DNA of 64,000 bases from an uncultured Candidatus Saccharibacteria bacterium (GCA_964360025.1 CAYHUD010000001.1:3922-67921), one strand, 5' to 3'. Shown: positions 3,492 through 50,745, counted from the first letter of the stretch. The notes: a model not told the origin generated them from the sequence alone. A program made the numbers and translations.

Positions 3492-3494
3492 AAA

Positions 3495-3531
3495 TCCCCT
3501 ATCTCGTCCCATGGGACGAGATGGGGGACAA
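3495..3531. repeat. family B palindrome (tcccctatctcgtcccatgggacgagatgggggaca)
   Basis: flanks gene 2916-3491 on the 3' side, 4 nt after stop. Confidence 0.8.
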
Positions 3532-4562: not shown

Positions 4563-4683
4563 GCTTCGCTCTCAATGACAACAGATGGAGATTCTTCGCG
4601 CAACGCTCAGAATGACAGAAAAACCGCTCTAGCGACGGCGGCCATCGGCTCGCCAAAGCTCTAGCGACGGCGGCCGTGAAATG
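4563..4683. repeat. family A fragment (gagattcttcgcgcaacgctcagaatgaca) plus 2x direct repeat 'ctctagcgacggcggcc'; overlaps 3' end of recombinase gene
   Basis: direct sequence match to family A modules; 17-bp exact duplication 40 bp apart. Confidence 0.6.
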
Positions 4684-8522: not shown

Positions 8523-8692
8523 AGAGAGATTCTTCGCGGGACGCCTGCCTGCCGGCAGGCAGGCTCAGAATGACGAAGGGGTTGTTACCCTCCTGGAATT
8601 AAATTCTGTCATCCTGAGGTTTACCGAAGGATCTCAAGTGAGATTCTTCGCGGGACGCCTGCCTGCCGGCAGGCAGGCTCAGAATGACGATC
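8523..8692. repeat. family A repeat array 1 (2 long units gagattcttcgcgggacgcctgcctgccggcaggcaggctcagaatgacga + 1 mirror unit tgtcatcctgag..gaaggatctc)
   Basis: exact 51-bp unit at 8525-8575 and 8639-8690. Confidence 0.85.
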
Positions 8693-10259: not shown

Positions 10260-10990
10260 TGAAAGTAGTTGGTAGTCCATAATTCATAATTCTTGATTCA
10301 TTATTCACTCCCTACCTCCCCCGCTCTCCCCTCCTGCTTGCCGCATTGCCTTATCCGGCAAGATATGGGGCTATAGTTGCCGATTGAAGAGTAGGGAAGC
10401 GGCAATCGGCAAATGTGGCAATTGCCGTGTAAAACAATGTGTTTTACATTTGTTTTACACTAATTTTAGAGCTTTTTAGAAGCCAATCGGTAGATAAAAC
10501 CTACATTATTTGAGTGTTTCGGGGTGTTTTACATAGTGTTTTCCATGGCCTACAAGCTCGGAAGCCGATCGTGCGATGAAACCTACATTATTTGCATTTT
10601 CGTGTTTTGGAGTGTTTGACGTTTTCCTTTTTTTACACACAATGGAAAACGTTAAACATCTTTTACCGGAAAAAAACTTTTTAAATTGCCGATTGAGGCA
10701 CATCAAGACGGCAATTCAATCGGCAAATGCGGCAATTTATGCGACTAATTGCCGCATCATACGGCAAAAAATGGTTGTAGTGTTTGACGTTAAACAAACA
10801 GTTAAAGTATGGCGAGATTGCCACGGGCCGACAACTGTCGGCCCTCGTAATGACAGATCGAGGAAAACGTCAAACATCGTTTTACACAGGAATTGGACAT
10901 GGATCATGAAACACGCATCATGGATCATGTGAGAACATGCGTCCCGTACTCCGTGTTATGTGTTATGTTAAACACACACGATGTTTCACG
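10260..10990. repeat. ~700-bp repeat-dense non-coding region (duplicated ~50-bp 'gccgattga.g...ggcaat.c..tcggcaaatg.ggcaatt' unit; 'aaacctacattatttg' x2; 'gtttgacgtt'/'aacgtcaaac'; 'gtgttttaca' motifs; family E copy at 10817-10855)
   Basis: direct reading; only short spurious ORFs. Confidence 0.6.
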
Positions 10991-26610: not shown

Positions 26611-26753
26611 CCGGGAAGTAGAAACTCAGCTGATGAAACTAAGCGTGGGCTGAGTTTGCACTTCCTGGTAAAAATTGAGGGGTAAAAAAGCCACGCTGCC
26701 GGCGTGGCTGGGTATCATCCGAGGAAACTACTCTCCGTCTATCTTTATTCAGT

Positions 26754-26791
26754 TGTCCACTATCTCGTCCCATGGGACGAGATAGTGGACA
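26754..26791. repeat. family B 38-bp perfect palindrome
   Basis: tgtccactatctcgtcccatgggacgagatagtggaca. Confidence 0.85.
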
Positions 26792-26868
26792 ATCTACGCG
26801 GTATCAGAGGCGGGAAACTTGCCGATTAACATATAAAAGTGTATCTTATAGACAGCATCGCGCGATAT

Positions 26869-35697: not shown

Positions 35698-37920
35698 CTA
35701 CCACTTCTCAACAATCAGCCAGGACTTATTTTCCACGGGAAGTTTCTGATAAATTTCTTCGGTCAAATGAGGCATAAAGAGGTGTAGGATCTTTAATGAC
35801 TCAAGGAGAATATAGCCCAGAACGGCATTCGTATTTTCATCAATCTGCTTTTTGGACTCCTCAAGATAGATATCGCAGAAATCATGCCAGAAAAAATCAT
35901 AAACCTCATGGAGCGCCGCACCCATATTATATTTTTTAATGCCGGCCTCCACGGATTTTTTGACTGATTTGAGTCGCGCGATGATTTTTTTATCAGCGGC
36001 GGTTTTTGGCTTTACGCTTTGCTCTTTGCCCTTTGCGCTTCGCGCCAGAACAAACCGCGCCGCATTCCAAATTTTATTGGCGAACTTTTTACCGGCCATA
36101 ACTGCCGCCTCATCCCAACGGACGTCCTGTCCGCCCATCGCCTGCCAGATGATGCCAAACCTAGTGGCATCGGCGCCGTATTTTGAAACGAGCTCAAGAG
36201 GATCCACGCCCGTGCCCAGTGACTTAGACATTCTCCGGCCATCTTTTGCGAGCACGGTCGCGTGAATGAGCGCCGTCTTAAAAGGCGTTTTCCCACCCAT
36301 AAATTCCAGGCCGGAAAAAATCATGCGACCAACCCAGAGATTGATAATATCACGGGCGGTAATCAGGACATCTGAGGGATAAAATAATTGCAAATCGGTT
36401 TGAGAAAGTCCTGCAAACGGCCACAAAGCTGAAGAGAACCATGTATCCAGGACATCCTCTGACTGAACAAACTCCGCATCGCAAAATTCGCACCCAGGTT
36501 TTGCAAGAGATACAATCATATCTTTGCACTTTACTATTTCGTCTTCGTGGCCGGACTTGGGCACGCACTTCGGCTCGTGGAACCAAACAGGAAGACGATG
36601 CCCCCACCAAATCTGGCGGGAAATGCACCAGTCCTTAATATTTTTTAGCCAGTCAAAAAACGGTTTTTCAAAATTTTTGGGAACAATCTTTGTTTTACCG
36701 GATTTAACAGTTTTTGCCGTCGCTTTTGCCAGTTTATCCATATCCATAAACCATTGATTGGAAAGAATAGGTTCCAGAGTGCTGTCACAACGGTAGCACT
36801 TTGCCACATTGTGTTTGTAGTCCTCTATTTTTTCCATTAAGTTTTGGCTCTCCAGCTCCGCTATGACTTTCTCGCGACATTCGGAAATTTTCAAGCCATC
36901 GCACACCGCTCCGACATTTTTCATACGGCCGCGTTCGCTGATAATTTCATAACTCGGCAAATCATGGCGTCCGGCAATTTCGTTATCCAGCAAATCATGC
37001 GCCGGAGTTACTTTTACCATTCCGGTGCCAAAGGTTATATCAATAGCATCGTCGCCAATTATGGGAATCTCCCGATTAACTATCGGCAAGACAGCTTTTT
37101 TTCCGATCAAATTTTTATACCGCTTATCTTTTGGGTTCACTGCCACAGCCGCATCGCCCAACATTGTTTCCGGGCGGGTAGTCGCGACAACGATAAAATC
37201 TTTAGTATTGTCATTCTGAGGCGAAGCCGAAGAATCTTTTTGAGATCCTTCGGGTGCACTCAGGATGACAGAATCTGGAGTAGTACTTAAGAGGGGATAT
37301 TTAATAAAATAAAGCTTGCCCGTCTCTTCTTTGTGTTCAATTTCCAGATCGGAAAGAGAAGTGCCGCAACGAACGCACCACGAAACCATTCTTTTGCCGC
37401 GATAAATGAAACCTTTTTCGTAATAATGCACGAATACCTTAAGCACTTCCTCGCTATAAGACGGGTCCATGGTAAAACGCGTACGGCTCCAGTCGGCAGA
37501 AGCCCCGAGGCGTTTTAGCTGGTCAAGAATGATATTGCCGTATTTGGCTTTCCATTCCCAAACTTTTTCCACAAACTTCTCGCGGCCGAGATCAAAGCGA
37601 CTGATATTTTCTTTACGCAAGTTTTTTTCCACCACATTTTGCGCGGCGATACCGGCATGGTCTATGCCCGGGAGCCAGGCGGTTTTAAAACCCTTCATCC
37701 GATGATAACGAATCAAAATATCCGTCGTTGTGGCATTTAAGGCGTGACCCATGTGCAATGACCCTGTTATATTCGGCGGCGGAAGGAGGACGGTGTAGGA
37801 TTTTTTACCTTTTCCCGGAGCAAAAAAACCGCGCGAGAGCCACTCTCCGTAAATGCGGGTTTCCACTGACTTGGGATCGTAAGCTGATGACGCTTCCTGC
37901 TTTTTATTTAGGTCTTCCAT
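35698..37920 (-). CDS. valS: valyl-tRNA synthetase (compact form)
   Basis: HIGH (PPNITGSLHMGHAL), TTRPETMLGD, KMSKS (RMSKSLGT). Confidence 0.9.
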   Translation of the reverse strand: MEDLNKKQEASSAYDPKSVETRIYGEWLSRGFFAPGKGKKSYTVLLPPPNITGSLHMGHALNATTTDILIRYHRMKGFKTAWLPGIDHAGIAAQNVVEKNLRKENISRFDLGREKFVEKVWEWKAKYGNIILDQLKRLGASADWSRTRFTMDPSYSEEVLKVFVHYYEKGFIYRGKRMVSWCVRCGTSLSDLEIEHKEETGKLYFIKYPLLSTTPDSVILSAPEGSQKDSSASPQNDNTKDFIVVATTRPETMLGDAAVAVNPKDKRYKNLIGKKAVLPIVNREIPIIGDDAIDITFGTGMVKVTPAHDLLDNEIAGRHDLPSYEIISERGRMKNVGAVCDGLKISECREKVIAELESQNLMEKIEDYKHNVAKCYRCDSTLEPILSNQWFMDMDKLAKATAKTVKSGKTKIVPKNFEKPFFDWLKNIKDWCISRQIWWGHRLPVWFHEPKCVPKSGHEDEIVKCKDMIVSLAKPGCEFCDAEFVQSEDVLDTWFSSALWPFAGLSQTDLQLFYPSDVLITARDIINLWVGRMIFSGLEFMGGKTPFKTALIHATVLAKDGRRMSKSLGTGVDPLELVSKYGADATRFGIIWQAMGGQDVRWDEAAVMAGKKFANKIWNAARFVLARSAKGKEQSVKPKTAADKKIIARLKSVKKSVEAGIKKYNMGAALHEVYDFFWHDFCDIYLEESKKQIDENTNAVLGYILLESLKILHLFMPHLTEEIYQKLPVENKSWLIVEKW
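37208..37270. repeat. family A palindromic element inserted in frame within valS (tgtcattctgaggcgaagccgaagaatctttttgagatccttcgggtgcactcaggatgaca)
   Basis: encodes ValRS segment ...ILSAPEGSQKDSSASPQNDNT... Confidence 0.75.
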
Positions 37921-37957
37921 GGGATTATTTAATCATAAAAACTGGCTTTTTTATAGA

Positions 37958-37986
37958 TTGACAGGAGTCTTTCTGTATGGTATAAT
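37958..37986 (+). promoter_or_regulatory. sigma70-type promoter TTGACA-N17-TATAAT
   Basis: perfect hexamers upstream of ORF 38057. Confidence 0.5.
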
Positions 37987-38056
37987 GTTGAGGTTCTTTG
38001 CTGGGGAAGATAAAAATCGTGGGGTTGAATGGTAGATACAAGAATAAGGAGGCGAA

Positions 38057-38332
38057 ATGATACCAGGAATGAAGCTGACGGCGGCGGAAGAAGACCAACT
38101 TCTTTGCGCCTTTGCGAGTCTGGGACAGGAACTCGCGGAAAGATGCGAAGAGGAAATACTCCGCGAGTTGGAACAAACGAAAGAGGAGCTGGAGGCACAA
38201 GAAGGTGTCCTCTTCGCGCAAAGGTGCGCGAGCCAGATCATCGAGGGAGTTTTATGCGCGCAAAAGTGCGCGGACGAAATCGTCGAAAAGGCACCCGCGC
38301 CGCGCGGGGAAGCAACTGAACATGGGGTATAG
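38057..38332 (+). CDS. small acidic Cys-containing hypothetical protein (91 aa)
   Basis: AGGAGG RBS; perfect promoter upstream. Confidence 0.5.
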   Translation: MIPGMKLTAAEEDQLLCAFASLGQELAERCEEEILRELEQTKEELEAQEGVLFAQRCASQIIEGVLCAQKCADEIVEKAPAPRGEATEHGV

Positions 38333-38385
38333 TCACGGAGCGGATCAGGGATGACCCGCTCTTTCTTTTTTTAAAGCGTCAAATT

Positions 38386-39630
38386 TTAAAGCGTCAAACC
38401 GGAGTCCGCAACAAGCGGATATTTTTTTCTGCGGGACTTTTGTTGTAGATAAGCGGCAACGGCAATCATTGCGGCGTTATCAGTGTTGTATTCAAAATCC
38501 GGAGCGAAGAACTCCGCCCCCGCCGCATTCGCGGCTTTTTTCAATTCTTTACGCAAAGTTTTGTTAGCCGCCACGCCGCCGCATAAAAATACCGACTTCG
38601 CGCCGAACTCGCGCACGGCGCGAATAGTTTTTGCAGTTAAAACATCAATCACGGCGAACTGGAAACTCGCCGAGACATCGGACAGCTGCTCTGCCGTCAT
38701 TCTGAAGTCCGACAATTGCCGGACTGAAGAATCTACTGAAGATTCTTCACGAGATCCTTCGCTCCGCTCAGGATGACTTACTAAACTTTTCAAGTAATAC
38801 AAAACCGATGTTTTGAGGCCGGAGAAACTGAATTCGTAATTTTTCTCCCGCATCATCGGGCGCGGGAAGGCGATCGCCTTGCCATTTCCCTTTTTTGCCA
38901 GCTTTTCAATCAGAGGACCGCCGGGGTAGGGCAGGCTCATCATTTTTGCGACTTTATCATACGCCTCGCCGGCGGCATCGTCGCGCGTTTCGCCTATTTT
39001 TTTCCATGTCTTCAAATTTTTCATCACTACAAGAATCGTGTGGCCGCCGGAGACAAGCAGCGCTACTGCCGGAAATTCCAATTTCCAATTTCCAATTTCC
39101 AATTTTGGTAACTCCTCGACAAGCTTGAGGGGTAATTTTTTATTTTTGGGTATTAGATATTGGATATTGGTAATTACAGTTTTTTGCGGCAGTAAAAAAC
39201 TGTACAGATGCCCCTCCAGGTGATTTACGCCTACGAGCGGGATTTTTAATTCTGCAGAAAGTTTTTTTGCGAACTCCACGCCGGTCCAGAGAGAGGGCTC
39301 AAGACCGGGGCCGACGGTGACGGCGAGCAGATCGGGAATAACGAATTTTGAATTATGAATCATGGACTTTTTATTCTTTATTCTTAATTCTTTATTCATA
39401 ATTCGTTTCCAAAGAATCGGCAGATTCTTCAAGTGCTCACGCTTGGCAAGGTTGGGCACCACTCCGCCCCAATGGCTATGGATTTTTGTCTGCGAGGAAA
39501 CCAGATTTTTTAGAACTTTAAAATGCGGGACTAAAACGCTTGGCGTTCGCCCAAGATTCTTCGGCTCCGTAACCTCCACAATGGCCATGGAAGTATCGTC
39601 GCAACTGGTTTCAATAGAGAGAATGCGCAT
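38386..39630 (-). CDS. tsaD: tRNA N6-adenosine threonylcarbamoyltransferase TsaD (Kae1/Gcp family)
   Basis: N-terminal MRILSIETSCDDTSMAIV; contains in-frame family A insertion and a 7-nt x4 tandem repeat. Confidence 0.85.
   Translation of the reverse strand: MRILSIETSCDDTSMAIVEVTEPKNLGRTPSVLVPHFKVLKNLVSSQTKIHSHWGGVVPNLAKREHLKNLPILWKRIMNKELRIKNKKSMIHNSKFVIPDLLAVTVGPGLEPSLWTGVEFAKKLSAELKIPLVGVNHLEGHLYSFLLPQKTVITNIQYLIPKNKKLPLKLVEELPKLEIGNWKLEFPAVALLVSGGHTILVVMKNLKTWKKIGETRDDAAGEAYDKVAKMMSLPYPGGPLIEKLAKKGNGKAIAFPRPMMREKNYEFSFSGLKTSVLYYLKSLVSHPERSEGSREESSVDSSVRQLSDFRMTAEQLSDVSASFQFAVIDVLTAKTIRAVREFGAKSVFLCGGVAANKTLRKELKKAANAAGAEFFAPDFEYNTDNAAMIAVAAYLQQKSRRKKYPLVADSGLTL
38695..38778. repeat. family A palindromic element inserted in frame within tsaD (gtcattctgaag...gaagattcttcacgagatccttcgctccgctcaggatgac)
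   Basis: encodes extra segment SHPERSEGSREESSVDSSVRQLSDFRMTAE. Confidence 0.7.
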
Positions 39631-42742: not shown

Positions 42743-42774
42743 CAAAAATAATTTAGTTTTACGATAAATGATTT

Positions 42775-42812
42775 TGTCCCCTATCTCGTCCCATGGGACG
42801 AGATAGGGGACA
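42775..42812. repeat. family B palindrome (tgtcccctatctcgtcccatgggacgagataggggaca)
   Basis: direct reading. Confidence 0.85.
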
Positions 42813-42892
42813 AAATAAAAAACACCTCGGCTACAAAGACACTCTTAACAGGAGTGGTTTTGTTTTGAACGTCTTTGTTCCTGAATCCGAAA

Positions 42893-42930
42893 TGTCTACT
42901 ATCTCAAACGATCGTTTGAGATAGTAGACA
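42893..42930. repeat. family B variant palindrome with different centre (tgtctactatctcaaacgatcgtttgagatagtagaca)
   Basis: conserved outer arms ACTATCTC/GAGATAGT, centre replaced by aaacgatcgttt. Confidence 0.8.
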
Positions 42931-42988
42931 TTTGAAAATTAAAATTATCTGATGATTGGAACCGGCAAACGGGCTTGCTTTTTGTCTA

Positions 42989-44398: not shown

Positions 44399-44456
44399 CG
44401 AGCCCACCCACACACGAACGAAAACGCGTTCTGTGAGTGGGTGGGCTCAATTTTTT
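44399..44456 (+). terminator. rho-independent terminator (gagcccacccacacacgaacgaaaacgcgttctgtgagtgggtgggctc + T6)
   Basis: long hairpin + T-run. Confidence 0.65.
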
Positions 44457-44477
44457 AAGGATACATATTTGGGGATT

Positions 44478-44610
44478 AGAGATCCTTCGCAAAGCTCAGA
44501 ATGACAAAAATTGTCATCCTGAGTGTTGCACGAAGGATCTCGAAAAAGAGATTCTTCGCAAAGCTCAGAATGACAGAGCTCTGCGTTCAGAATGACGAAA
44601 TAAATAATCT
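44478..44610. repeat. family A repeat array 2
   Basis: units agagatccttcgcaaagctcagaatgaca / tgtcatcctgag..gaaggatctc / gagattcttcgcaaagctcagaatgaca / ttcagaatgacga. Confidence 0.8.
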
Positions 44611-44663
44611 TCAAATATGTGCTCTTAAACAACAAAAAATGGCCCCGGTAAAAGAGGTGAGTT

Positions 44664-45398
44664 ATGGACATCAAGGGAATCCTCAACCAGGCGTTGGAAG
44701 TCGCTGACGTGGTCTATGTCGGCGATGATCGTGAAGTTTCGGTTTTCGCTTTTTTGGAGGAACAAAAGCGACAAGTAGGCCCGGCCTACCAGGCCGCAAA
44801 TGATGTGCGTCATCACTCCAAAATCGGAATGGTGGCGCTGAAGGAGAGTAACTACGCCCTGCTCGCCCTGTGCGCTCAGCGCATCGGAGAGAACATGGCC
44901 ACTCTCCGAAGATTGAACCTCCCCGCCGATCTGCTGTGGCAGCATATCGGCGAGGCTGGGCAGGAAGCCGGGGAGTTCATGCTGGTGCGTGAGCTCCACG
45001 AACTTCTCTTCCCCCGAGGCATGGTGCCCTCGGGATCCGAGCCGTTTGAGGGGGGGATGAATATCCCCTCAGCGACCGATCTCTGCCTCGAGCCGCAGGC
45101 GTGGCTCGCGGCATTGATCGACGCCACGAGCGAGCTGGGCAAGCTCGCCGTGGAACGGATGTGCCGCGGGGACATGACCCGCGCACAACATGTGGCGACG
45201 CTCCGGAGAATGCTGGAGATTGCCCGTACGGTGTACGGCTACCTTCAGAAATTTGAAGGGGCGGTTCCCATGATCATCAACAACAGCCGTCGCAGGGGGT
45301 ATGGAAATACCTTCCGCGGCGCGATGTACCGCATCGAGCGGCTGATTGAGAACAACGAGCTCGCCCTGCTCCGGATGGTGCAGGACGACTCCAAGTAA
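44664..45398 (+). CDS. hypothetical protein (244 aa), strongly GC-rich gene
   Basis: GAGGTG RBS; terminator follows. Confidence 0.55.
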   Translation: MDIKGILNQALEVADVVYVGDDREVSVFAFLEEQKRQVGPAYQAANDVRHHSKIGMVALKESNYALLALCAQRIGENMATLRRLNLPADLLWQHIGEAGQEAGEFMLVRELHELLFPRGMVPSGSEPFEGGMNIPSATDLCLEPQAWLAALIDATSELGKLAVERMCRGDMTRAQHVATLRRMLEIARTVYGYLQKFEGAVPMIINNSRRRGYGNTFRGAMYRIERLIENNELALLRMVQDDSK

Positions 45399-45423
45399 TA
45401 ATCGCCTGCTCGCAGTTTCAGGA

Positions 45424-45452
45424 CCCCCCACGGGATGTGGGGGGTTTTCATT
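45424..45452 (+). terminator. rho-independent terminator (ccccccacgggatgtggggggttttcattttt)
   Basis: hairpin + T-run. Confidence 0.7.
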
Positions 45453-45472
45453 TTTATGGGGAGAGGATCAAG

Positions 45473-45730
45473 TAGAGATTCTTCGCGCGACGCCTGCCTG
45501 CCGGCAGGCAGGCTCAGAATGACAAGGTGTAAAGCTCAGAAAGACAGGAGGAAAACGCGAATCAGGATGACCAAATGCGACGTTTAAGATGACAGAGGGG
45601 AACCGTGTCATCCTGAGGTCTACCGAAGGATCTCGGGATTGAGATTCTTCGCAAGGCCTGCCGGCAGGCAGGCAGGCTCAGAATGACAACGTGTTGCGCT
45701 TAGAACGACAGGGCTCTGCGCTCAGAATGA
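45473..45730. repeat. family A repeat array 3
   Basis: multiple gagattcttcgc..ctcagaatgaca, tgtcatcctgag..gaaggatctc and gcctgcctgccggcaggcaggc modules. Confidence 0.85.
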
Positions 45731-45752
45731 CGAAAAAGTAATAAGATAATTA

Positions 45753-46040
45753 TCAAAGATCCAATGATAAGTCCCTGAAATCAGGATTGTTTTCTTTAAT
45801 AAGAACTTCCTTTTTAATACGCGTCCAGCCTTTTATTTTCTTCTCCGCTAGAATAGCAAACTCTGGAGAATTAAATACTTCGTAGAATATCAGCTTGTTA
45901 AGATTGTATCTCTTTGTAAACCCATCAACTAATTTTTCTTTATGTTCCTGCATCCGACGACGAAGATTGTTGGTCATACCTGTGTATAAAACAGTGTGTA
46001 TTTTATTCGTAATTATATAGACAAAATAATTTTGGTTCAT
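45753..46040 (-). CDS. GIY-YIG nuclease family protein (small, ~96 aa)
   Basis: YFVYIITNKIHTVLYTGMTNNLRRRMQEH; six-frame N-terminal extension is repeat-derived. Confidence 0.75.
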   Translation of the reverse strand: MNQNYFVYIITNKIHTVLYTGMTNNLRRRMQEHKEKLVDGFTKRYNLNKLIFYEVFNSPEFAILAEKKIKGWTRIKKEVLIKENNPDFRDLSLDL

Positions 46041-46047
46041 AAAATTT

Positions 46048-46332
46048 AGAGATTCTTCGCGCGACGCCTGCCTGCCGGCAGGCAGGCTCAGAATGACGGA
46101 GAGTGGTGTCGGCGTCCTGGAATTAAATTCTGTCATCCTGAGCGAAGCGAAGGATCTCGGAATTGAGATTCTTCGCGAAGCTCAGAATGACTAGTGAATG
46201 TTTGTCATCCTGAGACTAGTTTCTGTCATCCTGAGGTTTGACGAAGGATCTCGGAAAAGAGATTCTTCGCGAAGCTCAGAATGACAAGGTGCAAAGCTCA
46301 GAATGACAAAGTGTTGCGCTCAGAATGACAAA
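46048..46332. repeat. family A repeat array 4
   Basis: five or more modules, begins 8 nt upstream of GIY-YIG start. Confidence 0.85.
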
Positions 46333-46340
46333 AATAAAAA

Positions 46341-47396
46341 TTACTTAGCAAAAGGATTCCTTGCACCAATCACTTCAAAGTGCAAATGGCAGCCCGTCGG
46401 GCCGTGGACATTGCCGGTGTTGCCGATATAGGCGATGGTGTCGCCTTGTAAAACATAGTCGCCTACCGAAACGACATTTTTAGAATTATGCGAGTAGCGG
46501 GTTTTCGTATTATTGGGGTGTTCAATCACAATGTAACCGCCATAGCCTTCGTTCCAGCCTCCGCTTTTTGACTCCGCGACCAGCCCCTCCGCCGCCGCGT
46601 AAATAGCCGTGCCGCAGGCGTTCGCGATATCCACGGCATTAAAATTATGCAGCTTGCCCCAGTTCCAGCCGGTAGTCGGAATGGCGTAATACCCCGGAAA
46701 GTTGGGTAACTTAGATGCTGTGGCTACAGTTGCCGGCGGTTTGACATCGGGAATAATTAAATTAACCCCTGCGTAAAGACCCTGGCTCAAAACTCTGGGA
46801 TTATATTTTAAAATACGCGACTCCGGTATGGAAAAAGACGCCGCAATGCTATCCAGCGTCTCACCGCTAGCCACTTGGTAAATAATGCCGGACACGGGCA
46901 AAATAGTAATCTCCTGGCCGATTTTAAGCGACGAACCTTTTACGCTTTTATTCGCCCAATAAATAGTATTTAAAGAGATGCCAAAGTTAGCGGCGATCTT
47001 AGAAAGGGTGTCGCCTTTCTGGATTTTATAAATAATAAGCCCATCGCGATGCACCAGCACGCTACTTTGCGGATTGCCGGTATTCAGGAAAGCCGAGTCG
47101 TCAATAATAAAAGAGCCGGGATCGTCATCGTCGCTCAAAATCATAATGCTATCATCGTCGGGCGCGCCGGATGCGCCCAGAGTGGCATCACTGCCCACAA
47201 AACCCAGCGAAGTTCCGTCACCCGGCCCTCCGCCGTTTCCGCCTTCCGCCGAAAAGGCCGTGCTGACCTCGTTCTGTAAAGAAATATTGATAAAAACGGT
47301 GATAATAAGCAAAACAACCGGTATGGCGACGGTTGCTCGGTGAATATGCTCCCGCAAGTGCTTTATTAACTTAGAAAACTTGTGTATATTTCCCAT
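46341..47396 (-). CDS. LysM-domain M23 family metallopeptidase
   Basis: two LysM-like segments (DTLSKIAANFGI, ETLDSIAASFSI) and M23 C-terminus (…IAYIGNTGNVHGPTGCHLHFEV). Confidence 0.8.
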   Translation of the reverse strand: MGNIHKFSKLIKHLREHIHRATVAIPVVLLIITVFINISLQNEVSTAFSAEGGNGGGPGDGTSLGFVGSDATLGASGAPDDDSIMILSDDDDPGSFIIDDSAFLNTGNPQSSVLVHRDGLIIYKIQKGDTLSKIAANFGISLNTIYWANKSVKGSSLKIGQEITILPVSGIIYQVASGETLDSIAASFSIPESRILKYNPRVLSQGLYAGVNLIIPDVKPPATVATASKLPNFPGYYAIPTTGWNWGKLHNFNAVDIANACGTAIYAAAEGLVAESKSGGWNEGYGGYIVIEHPNNTKTRYSHNSKNVVSVGDYVLQGDTIAYIGNTGNVHGPTGCHLHFEVIGARNPFAK

Positions 47397-49509: not shown

Positions 49510-50391
49510 ATGCACCAACGACTCGGACAACACTTTTTAATCAATAAATCGGCTATTGCGGAAACAATTGCCGCATTGACATTGGAGGAAAATGATTTAG
49601 TTGTGGAGATCGGGCCCGGGCATGGAGCTCTTACGCTACCCCTAGCTCAAAAATGTGTAGGTTTTAACTGCAAAATCATGGCTATTGAGAAAGACGCCGC
49701 GCTTGTGGATAACCTGTCAGAAACGATGCGGAAATACGGCAATATGGTGCAAATTATTGCCGGGGATGCGCTCGAAGAACTGCCTAAACTCGCAAAGCGC
49801 GAATCGCTGGGCGATGAAGACGGAAAAGGGTGGAAACTGGTGGGAAATATACCCTATTACATCACCGGAAAATTGCTAAGAATCATCGGGGAGCTAGAAA
49901 ATAAGCCCCACATTACGGTTTTGATGGTCCAAAAAGAAGTCGCGGAAAGGATAACAGCCACTCCAAAAGGGGGAATGAATCCCGTTAGAAGTAGCCCGCC
50001 CATAGGCCCTTCGGGCGCGCTTCGCGCGGGCGCGACTTCTAACGGGATGAATCTGCTTGCCGCCGCAACTCAATTCTGGAGCGATATTTCCATCATAAAA
50101 CGCTTAAAACCTAGCGATTTTGATCCGCCGCCAGAGGTGGACTCGGCAATAATTAAATTAAAGATCAAAGATCAAAGATCAAAAAGACGGGAGGCTGAGG
50201 GTTATTATAAATTGATCAAAATTGCCTTTAAACAACCAAGAAAGACGCTTTTGAATAACCTTGTAGATGGTCTTGATGATAAAAAAGAGGTGATTTTACA
50301 GAAAATCGCCGATTTGGGCTTTAACGAAAAAACTCGGGGGCAAGAATTGAGCGTGGAACAGCTTTTGGTTTTGGCGAGATCCTTCGGCTAA
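49510..50391 (+). CDS. rsmA: 16S rRNA (adenine1518/1519-N6)-dimethyltransferase RsmA/KsgA
   Basis: LGQHFL, VEIGPGHGALT, GNIPYYITGKLL; contains in-frame family D insertion; 3' end lies in repeat. Confidence 0.85.
   Translation: MHQRLGQHFLINKSAIAETIAALTLEENDLVVEIGPGHGALTLPLAQKCVGFNCKIMAIEKDAALVDNLSETMRKYGNMVQIIAGDALEELPKLAKRESLGDEDGKGWKLVGNIPYYITGKLLRIIGELENKPHITVLMVQKEVAERITATPKGGMNPVRSSPPIGPSGALRAGATSNGMNLLAAATQFWSDISIIKRLKPSDFDPPPEVDSAIIKLKIKDQRSKRREAEGYYKLIKIAFKQPRKTLLNNLVDGLDDKKEVILQKIADLGFNEKTRGQELSVEQLLVLARSFG
49979..50048. repeat. family D palindromic element inserted in frame in rsmA, flanked by ATGAAT direct duplication
   Basis: cccgttagaagt...acttctaacggg; encodes extra NPVRSSPPIGPSGALRAGATSNG between duplicated GMN codons. 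Confidence 0.7.
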
Positions 50392-50745
50392 CACCTCAGG
50401 ATGATAAAGAATAACCTCGGGACAACAAACACAACCCTGTCATTCTGAGCCTGCCTGCCCGCTTCGCCCGCCTAGACTCGGCGAGGCCTGGCCGTGGCTT
50501 CAGCGAGGCGAGCCGGCAGGCAGGCGTTGCGCGAAGAATCTCGAGATCCTTCGCTTCGCTCAGGATGACAAAAATTAGCCTCGGGATGGTCAACTAAGTA
50601 ACGAGATCCTTCGGCTAACACCTCGGGATGATAAAGAATAACCTCGGGACAACAAACACAACCCTGTCATTCTGAGCGTTGCGCGAAGAATCTCGAGATC
50701 CTTCGCTTCGCTCAGGATGACAAAAATTGGTTTCGGGATGGTTCG
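50380..50745. repeat. family A repeat array 5, includes ~225-bp tandem duplication (50386-50610 / 50611-50745) and nested long palindrome 50449-50526
   Basis: 'gagatccttcggctaacacctc.ggatgataaagaataacctcgggacaacaaacacaaccctgtcattctgagc' present twice. Confidence 0.85.

Follow-up and report, generated by a model that had tools for sequence, protein, structure and literature searches.

Repetitive extragenic palindromic (REP) sequences of the CGTC superfamily carry a CGTC, TGTC or CCTC tag, an 8-9 bp stem whose first pairs are A-T and T-A, a loop 4-5 nt long and a short, mostly CCA tail, and they frequently form inverted dimers and heterodimers with spacers of 20-100 bp (PMC3733652). Within this superfamily, CGTC-1 comprises the Neisseria repeat dRS3 and RPE-6, a Rickettsia palindromic element (RPE) of R. 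conorii, and CGTC-4 corresponds to RPE-4 (Di Nocera, De Gregorio and Rocco 2013, PMC3733652). Intragenic CGTC REPs are often in-frame dimers that encode 20-30 amino acids (aa), including copies in isoleucyl- and glycyl-tRNA synthetase genes; the dimer peptide of the E. litoralis isoleucyl-tRNA synthetase is VTPAEAGVSPGHEQIPASAGMT, and in R. conorii the dimers encode SFLRKQES...LDSRFRGND and single arms VIPAKAGI (PMC3733652, Additional file 3). This work concerns a probable variant of these repeats, termed family A, in a 64,000-nt stretch of DNA from an uncultured Candidatus Saccharibacteria bacterium (GCA_964360025.1 CAYHUD010000001.1:3922-67921; hereafter the window), where two inverted dimers are inserted in frame in the essential genes valS and tsaD.

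A nuclease that recognises repeats of this kind is known from Neisseria. This enzyme, SsnA, is a GIY-YIG protein of 94 aa that binds the hairpin of the NTS repeat (CGTCATTCCCGCGMAVGCGGGAATCYRG, which contains dRS3) only as single-stranded DNA (ssDNA) and cuts beside it (Chenal et al. 2025, PMC11893778). Cleavage of ssDNA next to the hairpin is site specific, none is seen on double-stranded DNA or RNA, and the Neisseria ssnA gene is itself flanked by NTS copies (PMC11893778). SsnA homologues (cut-off E < 1e-10; CDD assignment cd10448, GIY-YIG_unchar_3) and Ssn-related motifs (SRM) occur in many phyla, and those of Rickettsia, Wolbachia and Neisseria belong to the genomes in which the motifs number more than 300 (PMC11893778). 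An effect on transformation, not on transposition, was shown, mobilisation by SsnA was raised as a hypothesis, and the main text makes no mention of insertions in coding sequence or of bacteria of the Candidate Phyla Radiation (CPR) (PMC11893778). Among the Rickettsia elements, the RPE-1 type is given in a later summary as about 150 bp long with a conserved peptide of 30-50 aa (Ogata et al. 2000, summarised in PMC10969869).

Family A dimers within valS and tsaD

Both host genes lie on the minus strand, and each contains one family A dimer whose arms were located by pattern search. The features are given below in the numbering of the whole stretch.

35698-37920, minus strand: valS, valine--tRNA ligase (740 aa), host of the first insertion (NCBIfam)
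37210-37269, minus strand: 60-nt family A dimer in valS
38386-39630, minus strand: tsaD, t6A transferase subunit (414 aa), host of the second insertion (NCBIfam)
38696-38777, minus strand: 82-nt composite family A dimer in tsaD

The valS open reading frame (ORF) was identified by the NCBIfam equivalogs NF004349 (950 bits) and TIGR00422 (882 bits) and the tsaD ORF by TIGR03723 (338 bits). Both ORFs are intact, and each gene continues on both flanks of its element. The valS product matches T. thermophilus ValRS (1GAX, E=8.6e-193) in two stretches, one on each side of the insert, and the tsaD product matches T. maritima TsaD (6NAK, E=1.3e-67) in three stretches with lineage-specific inserts between them. 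The HIGH-type (HMGH) and RMSKS motifs of ValRS and the catalytic motifs of TsaD occupy invariant columns of the homologue alignments, and both genes appear to remain functional.

Each element is composed of two inverted arms with the pattern GTCAYYCTGAG...GAAGRRTC. The valS arms are GTCATTCTGAGGCGAAGCCGAAGAATC on the plus strand (37210-37236) and GTCATCCTGAGTGCACCCGAAGGATC on the minus strand (37244-37269). In the mRNA sense this element reads GTCATCCTGAGTGCACCCGAAGGATC-TCAAAAA-GATTCTTCGGCTTCGCCTCAGAATGAC and encodes VILSAPEGSQKDSSASPQND at about residues 218-237; the insert peptide ...DSVILSAPEGSQKDSSASPQNDNTKDF... is contained in the ValRS translation, and DSSASPQNDNTK is a peptide that spans an insert junction. 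The tsaD element consists of a plus-strand arm at 38696-38733, GTCATTCTGAAG[TCCGACAATTGCCGGA]CTGAAGAATC, which has an additional apical stem-loop (GTCCG-ACAATTGC-CGGAC), and a consensus arm on the minus strand at 38753-38777, GTCATCCTGAGCGGAGCGAAGGATC, with a short inner palindrome (GAAGAATCT/AGATTCTTC) between them. It encodes about SHPERSEGSREESSVDSSVRQLSDFRMT (residues 285-312), and the TsaD translation contains the insert peptide ...VSHPERSEGSREESSVDSSVRQLSDFRMTAEQ.... The two elements are in frame and free of stops in the frame used, and the peptide frame differs between them, being VILS... in valS and HPER... in tsaD. The valS insert peptide runs VILSAPEGS...DSSASPQND, with DNA ends of GTC-AT... 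at the start and ...AAT-GAC at the finish. As ssDNA the valS element folds at -15.7 and -18.2 kcal/mol (z -4.8 and -6.5) and the tsaD element at -17.6 and -16.9 kcal/mol (z -3.6 and -3.8), all as long hairpins.

The original prediction, made from the sequence alone, had placed a 63-bp element at 37208-37270 in valS and one of about 84 bp at 38695-38778 in tsaD, both preserving the frame of otherwise conserved enzymes. A family A dimer is present at each position, with core boundaries 1-2 nt inside those coordinates in both genes, and the quoted peptides, the in-frame insertion and the conservation of the hosts were all recovered. As 82 is not divisible by 3, it is uncertain exactly which unit was inserted in tsaD.

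Lineage-specific insertion into variable loops

Both elements are lineage-specific in-frame insertions in low-confidence, length-tolerant loops. ValRS residues 210-240 are without counterpart in 1GAX, the match breaking at query residues 209 and 241 (chain residues 203 and 208), and TsaD residues 282-314 are without counterpart in 6NAK, with breaks at 281 and 315 (chain residues 221 and 227). Among the 30 relatives closest to each protein, which all come from Parcubacteria/Patescibacteria metagenomes, both insertion sites vary in length and the segment is missing from most; the closest relatives have unrelated sequence or nothing at the two sites. AlphaFold2 models computed from the homologue alignments gave a predicted local distance difference test (pLDDT) value below 50 for ValRS residues 214-239, between confident strands at 194-210 and 242-247, and likewise for TsaD residues 287-306, between confident helices at 270-285 and 313-342. 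The ValRS insert directly precedes the ATTRPET editing motif, and the TsaD insert separates two helices in the C-terminal half of the protein.

A sister contig (L001) is syntenic with this region (recG ... tsaD ... valS - prsW), and its valS is without the element. The sister ValRS loop, from YP to (F/I)IVVATTRP, is 12 residues long, which equals the 12 aa of the window ValRS loop once the 60-nt element is subtracted. Alignment, structural models and sister genome thus agree with the lineage-specific loop insertions that had been proposed. The sister ValRS (P0127, L001 9010-11331) has other low-complexity inserts, such as HPKPHTLNPKPF, NKNKQEFEIKNQKSKIKNEEFF and a serine-rich stretch near the C-terminus, and essential proteins of this clade seem to be littered with repeat-like insertions generally.

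The genome is of the metagenome type and repeats are classic sites of misassembly, which raises the possibility that the insertions were created during assembly, or that the two genes are inactivated pseudogenes. Identical insertions are however found in independent assemblies, Hain_H52 R1 and R2, from the same groundwater site. Contigs of ERZ1292616 and ERZ1292618 hold exact segments of 180-190 nt, with 0 mismatches along the 1245 nt of tsaD and 1 along the 2223 nt of valS, and a one-off assembly artefact is ruled out because these two other assemblies carry the same segments exactly. The intact ORFs, the conserved catalytic columns and the continuation of the same gene on the flanks speak against pseudogenes. 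Both readings are highly improbable and were rejected.

Recurrence of family A sequence in TsaD

Searching 240 homologues with full-dimer peptide patterns returned only the window's own proteins. With looser single-arm patterns, arm-derived peptides were found in five other TsaD homologues, and the DNA of four of these was read. At the loop occupied in the window, the sister TsaD (L001) carries one consensus arm (GTCATTCTGAGCGAAGCGAAGAATC) and after it a run of four CCCTATA heptamers, the dimer of L203 is complete though degenerate, and L204 (P0013, 1501-2736) has a family A arm nested in another CGTC-type dimer, GTCATCGCGAG...CTTCGCAATGAC, i.e. GTCATCGCGAGG...GGCTTCGCAATGAC. Other TsaD loops hold a further family A arm in L204 (1903-1927) and a complete dimer in L205. 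The TsaD hosts share about 57-63% protein identity and the arms are still near consensus, so that either the loop was hit repeatedly or old copies were kept homogeneous.

This recurrence bears on whether the inserts have been co-opted, either as an RNA or DNA hairpin that would regulate valS or tsaD or as an extra loop that would form a new interaction surface. Co-option is in keeping with arm-derived sequence in the same TsaD loop of at least four Parcubacteria lineages, with arms that stay near consensus at this level of host divergence, and with the argument that many REPs act at the RNA level (Di Nocera et al., PMC3733652). It is nevertheless unlikely, given that the closest relatives have unrelated sequence or none at the sites, that the valS and tsaD peptides are in different frames, that both inserts have a pLDDT below 50, and that half of the tsaD element is replaced in the sister genome by the CCCTATA run, which looks like decay.

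The window tsaD contains other repeat-like segments. Four tandem AAATTGG heptamers at 39076-39105 (residues 176-185) are in frame as KLEIGNWKLE and lie inside a 32-aa TsaD insert (residues 148-179) that is missing from T. maritima TsaD; PKLEIGNCKLEFP is also present in the sister genome, where a different TsaD loop contains CCCTATA heptamers. An AT-rich segment at 39337-39393 (residues 80-98), …ATGATTCATAATTCAAAATTCGTTATTC…, encodes SMIHNSKFVIP. It is 85% complementary to intergenic sequence at 10274-10306, and IHNS.F.I peptides occur in other loops of several TsaD homologues, which points to a second family of repeats likewise able to enter coding loops. Another lineage-specific insert, at 39526-39573 (residues 20-35), contains CCGAAGAATCT, identical to the family A arm tail, and may be a decayed arm; the homologue P0057 has NHPELVEGS at this site.

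Anatomy and distribution of the family A arm

In the 64 kb, the terminal 11-mer of the arm (CTCAGGATGAC), allowing at most one mismatch, is found 28 times where 0.44 would be expected. For the full-arm pattern the count is 23, whereas 100 first-order Markov simulations gave 0.14 on average and never more than 2. Chance resemblance to family A was rejected on this excess, and the family membership first proposed for the two genic elements stands. The remaining copies in the window, located by pattern search, are as follows; clusters have no strand assigned.

4590-4616, minus strand: solitary family A arm
8528-8688: intergenic family A arms; in two, the apical hairpin is GC-rich and nested (CCTGCCTGCCGGCAGGCAGG)
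44481-44596: intergenic family A arms, a dimer and an extra arm
45477-45731: family A arm cluster on the 3' side of a GIY-YIG gene
46051-46329: family A arm cluster directly 5' of the GIY-YIG gene, the first arm ending 11 nt from its ATG
50375-50721: intergenic family A arms, the first overlapping the 3' end of the rRNA adenine dimethylase gene

The rRNA adenine dimethylase gene (49510-50391, ...LARSFG*) owes its 3' end, namely its final five codons and TAA stop, to the overlapping arm at 50375-50405. The nested palindrome CCTGCCTGCCGGCAGGCAGG replaces the apical loop in the arms at 8528-8574, 8642-8688, 45477-45523 and 46051-46097; the tsaD arm has another apical hairpin, so that arms vary in their apical module. 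A separate 40-nt perfect palindrome, TTGTCCACTATCTCGTCCCATGGGACGAGATAGTGGACAA, is unrelated to family A and has a terminator-like look. Its six copies, some near tRNA genes, are listed below.

958-997: TTGTCCACTATCTCGTCCCATGGGACGAGATAGTGGACAA palindrome
2840-2879: the same palindrome
3492-3531: the same palindrome
26753-26792: the same palindrome
42774-42813: the same palindrome
42892-42931: the same palindrome

The arm is composed of a (T/C)GTC tag, a stem in which A-N-N-C-T pairs with A-G-N'-N'-T, an apical GC/GAA/GC or a longer stem, and a CTC tail. The two stem positions after GTCA co-vary with the two before TC as TT/AA in 98 arms, TC/GA in 71, TG/CA in 7, CC/GG in 7 and CT/AG in 1, with a single non-pair. 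Because these variable positions co-vary as Watson-Crick pairs, the arm is read as a small hairpin. The stem ATTCTGAGC/GCGAAGAAT has 9 positions and starts A-T, T-A; positions 6-7 are G.A/A.G and 7 pairs are Watson-Crick. The predicted fold shares the shape of the NTS hairpin. Across many genomes GTC is preceded by T in 145 and by C in 24 of 178 arms, and by T in 14 of the 16 window arms. The tail is TC(TC), not CCA, in 173 of 194 arms, and the loop is GAA (3 nt), with a long apical hairpin in some copies.

A dimer consists of two inverted arms over 60-150 nt, usually one ATTCT/AGAAT and one ATCCT/AGGAT arm, and 37 convergent arm pairs with spacers of 12-98 nt were found in genomes of many phyla. 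At least 120 genome contigs (loci L003-L122) contain exact copies of the 27-mer GTCATYCTGAGCGAAGCGAAGRATCTC. Among the matches listed, its hosts belong to more than 10 phyla and include Acidobacteriota, Nitrospirota, Chloroflexota, Bacteroidales, Clostridia, Cyanobacteria and Verrucomicrobiota, as well as Planctomycetota, several Proteobacteria, Saccharibacteria and a Helicobacter. For a non-coding repeat, conservation to this degree across phyla is unusual, and both horizontal spread and constraint by a nuclease are possible. In 46 mostly intergenic dimers the length modulo 3 is unbiased (13/20/13), and typically one or two of the six frames are stop-free. Rfam scans of the whole window at gathering thresholds, and of 44400-46400 with E up to 10, matched only tRNAs and chance microRNA-type hits, and no RNA family describes the arms. 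Literature searches with the arm 11-mers and the encoded peptides returned primers or nothing, and those combining CPR with palindromic elements returned nothing relevant.

An SsnA-like gene bracketed by family A arms

The clusters at 45477-45731 and 46051-46329 enclose a candidate partner gene, which lies 6-8 kb from the genic elements.

45753-46040, minus strand: single-domain GIY-YIG gene (95 aa; PF01541), SsnA homologue and candidate partner enzyme

The PF01541 domain was identified (E=2.9e-16) in the ORF at 45753-46136 in a Pfam scan of the ORFs adjoining repeat clusters, the actual product being encoded at 45753-46040. NCBIfam gave only sub-threshold matches for the protein, and a PDB sequence search gave only a weak match to the UPF0213 protein 1ZG2. 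A tblastn comparison matched it to an N. gonorrhoeae locus (E=4e-17, 42.7% identity, 94% coverage) that is surrounded by six regex-positive NTS, with one more directly downstream. By this sequence match to an NTS-surrounded gonococcal locus, the window protein is assigned as an SsnA homologue.

The association of arms and gene is repeated in 80 metagenome loci (L123-L202) that encode proteins 55-69% identical to the window GIY-YIG protein. The terminal 11-mer lies within 300 nt of the gene in 65 of these 80, and arm density is 2.17 per kb near the gene versus about 0.08 per kb beyond 500 nt. In most of the 55 loci with an upstream arm, the forward arm begins 24-60 nt before the ATG, and in about half of the 58 with a downstream arm, the reverse arm ends 19-40 nt past the stop. 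Judged by this arrangement, the dimers without a gene seem to derive from a unit of arm, gene and arm that measures roughly 350-400 bp. On a Planktothrix agardhii plasmid (L207, NZ_LR882964.1, 18250-19722), a 55% identical GIY-YIG gene has family A-type arms on both sides; its neighbours are an MmeI-type restriction-modification gene on one side and drmA, the DISARM helicase gene, on the other, a defence-island context.

Relationship to described repeat systems

Family A is very probably a variant of the CGTC/TGTC-tagged REP hairpin repeats, or Ssn-related motifs. The resemblance to NTS/SsnA is in the 94-95 aa single-domain GIY-YIG gene bracketed by GTCAT...hairpin...ATC repeats, with further copies dispersed. 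With CGTC REPs, family A shares the unpaired (C/T)GTC tag, the A-T, T-A stem start, a stem of about 9 positions, a seemingly similar short tail, the inverted dimers that are often heterodimers with variable spacers, and the occasional in-frame intragenic dimers of 20-30 aa, including those in class I tRNA synthetase genes. The encoded ends are also alike, VIPAKAGI.../...DSRFRGND in R. conorii compared with VILSAPEGS.../...DSSASPQND in valS. Family A differs in its stem of 5+2 Watson-Crick pairs with a tandem G.A interruption, in its loop of GAA (3 nt) or a long apical hairpin, in the CTC tail instead of CCA, and in tags that point outward in both genes and around the nuclease gene, unlike those of CGTC REPs. 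The host is a CPR bacterium, from a group outside the published survey, and valS and tsaD are not in the list of that survey (PMC3733652).

As in RPE-1, palindromic repeats lie in frame at fold-compatible positions of unrelated housekeeping genes; the family A elements are 60-82 nt long compared with about 150 bp for RPE-1, and the lineage differs (PMC10969869). Five insert peptides searched against NCBIfam with E up to 10 matched no family, and the RPE models of that collection may not cover RPE-4 and RPE-6. The Rickettsia-like behaviour named in the original prediction is supported by in-frame palindromic insertions in conserved enzymes that are missing from the structural homologues. The prediction further placed the elements in a different lineage and a different repeat family: the lineage does differ, but the separate family does not hold, as the arms are TGTC/CGTC-tagged repeats flanking an SsnA-like gene. 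The RPE resemblance is probably homology at the superfamily level, through the CGTC-1/CGTC-4 equivalence of the literature.

Like the REPIN/RAYT system, family A combines one gene with many hairpin doublets, a gene flanked by its own repeats, and presumed ssDNA hairpin recognition. REPIN/RAYT, however, has a GTAG tag and a domesticated Y1 (HUH) tyrosine transposase, whereas family A has a (T/C)GTC tag and, among the ten ORFs searched, a GIY-YIG nuclease gene flanked by its arms, and REPINs are lineage-specific whereas the family A arm is nearly identical across phyla. With regard to miniature inverted-repeat transposable elements, inverted terminal arms are present, neither genic copy has a flanking direct repeat, and the gene-bearing unit encodes a nuclease, not an established transposase.

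Origin and spread of the insertions

It is possible, and proposed here tentatively, that SsnA-like nucleases mobilise TGTC-tagged dimers via ssDNA and that in CPR bacteria such dimers repeatedly colonise the loops of essential enzymes. The general history is more probable: dimers without the gene would have spread across the genome, and two copies would have entered valS and tsaD. New copies may arise via ssDNA intermediates recognised by the GIY-YIG nuclease, and the SsnA-like enzyme may drive the spread. A copy would survive in an essential gene only if in frame, stop-free and in a tolerant loop; roughly one random insertion in ten would qualify, because dimer length modulo 3 is unbiased and one or two of six frames are stop-free. 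The inserts are presumably translated and tolerated, most likely as hydrophilic, disordered loop extensions of 20-28 residues rich in serine, glutamate and proline, and are most likely neutral or nearly neutral passengers.

Several points weigh against this account and against the family assignment. Inspection of the sequence found no target-site duplication or flanking direct repeat at the valS or tsaD insertion, and the 82-nt tsaD core is compatible with the frame only given 1-2 additional bases or a subsequent indel. A single arm is predicted to fold weakly (-1.9 to -2.7 kcal/mol, z about 0), the hairpin resting on covariation. Both consensus arms fail the published SRM pattern, HGTCWYN(0-2)YYVSBRHN(0-5)WNVSBRGN(0-2)RNCYNB, which NTS passes; its one match in the window is unrelated to family A, and the published census probably missed family A arms, its counts then being too low. 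A second intact copy of valS or tsaD could lie elsewhere, the window covering 64 kb of the genome. A GIY-YIG gene lies within 8 kb in 1 of 120 randomly found genomic arm loci, which is not positive evidence for the partnership, although a system of one gene to many repeats predicts such a figure. To our knowledge, GIY-YIG nucleases cut and have no known strand-transfer or joining activity, and mobilisation by SsnA is hypothetical.

In another explanation, also a tentative possibility, recombination, gene conversion or replication template switching with an existing copy placed the repeats with no dedicated enzyme, and the GIY-YIG nuclease would have another role, such as modulating transformation or recombination as in Neisseria. 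Cutting without joining fits this explanation, as does the demonstration of an effect on transformation and not on transposition (PMC11893778). The lack of a target-site duplication at either site points the same way, and the composite tsaD element, with its partial inner arms, resembles a product of slippage or recombination among repeats. Just 5' of the valS insertion, the native GATTCT resembles the arm tail GAGATTCTTC and could have provided microhomology. Recombination accounts less readily for the valS insertion, a clean 60-nt dimer with consensus ends in a loop of otherwise the same length, and for arms that tightly bracket the nuclease gene in 65 of 80 loci, like an insertion-sequence-type unit.

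Implications for CPR genomes

The insertion event is real and ordinary in kind, that of a CGTC-REP/Ssn-motif member in a new host group. Palindromic elements that enter housekeeping genes in frame were already described in Rickettsia in 2000, and REP dimers in tRNA synthetase genes, class I included, were catalogued in 2013. New are the extension of the CGTC-REP/Ssn-motif system to CPR bacteria, a pan-bacterial arm variant, conserved as an exact 27-mer, that the published SRM pattern misses and censuses therefore probably undercount, and a clean filled/empty valS pair together with a recurrently hit TsaD loop. The pair and the loop bear on whether and how these repeats move, and on SsnA as the possible mobilising enzyme.

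If mobilisation by SsnA-like nucleases is correct, the filled/empty valS pair would directly document a de novo insertion in a class of repeats that is not known to move. The occurrence in at least four lineages of insertions in one TsaD loop, some of them nested, would represent repeated colonisation, and the near-invariant 27-nt arm over more than 10 phyla would reflect horizontal spread of the nuclease or tight co-evolution with it. The dimers would then be a significant source of the lineage-specific protein insertions that are typical of small CPR genomes.

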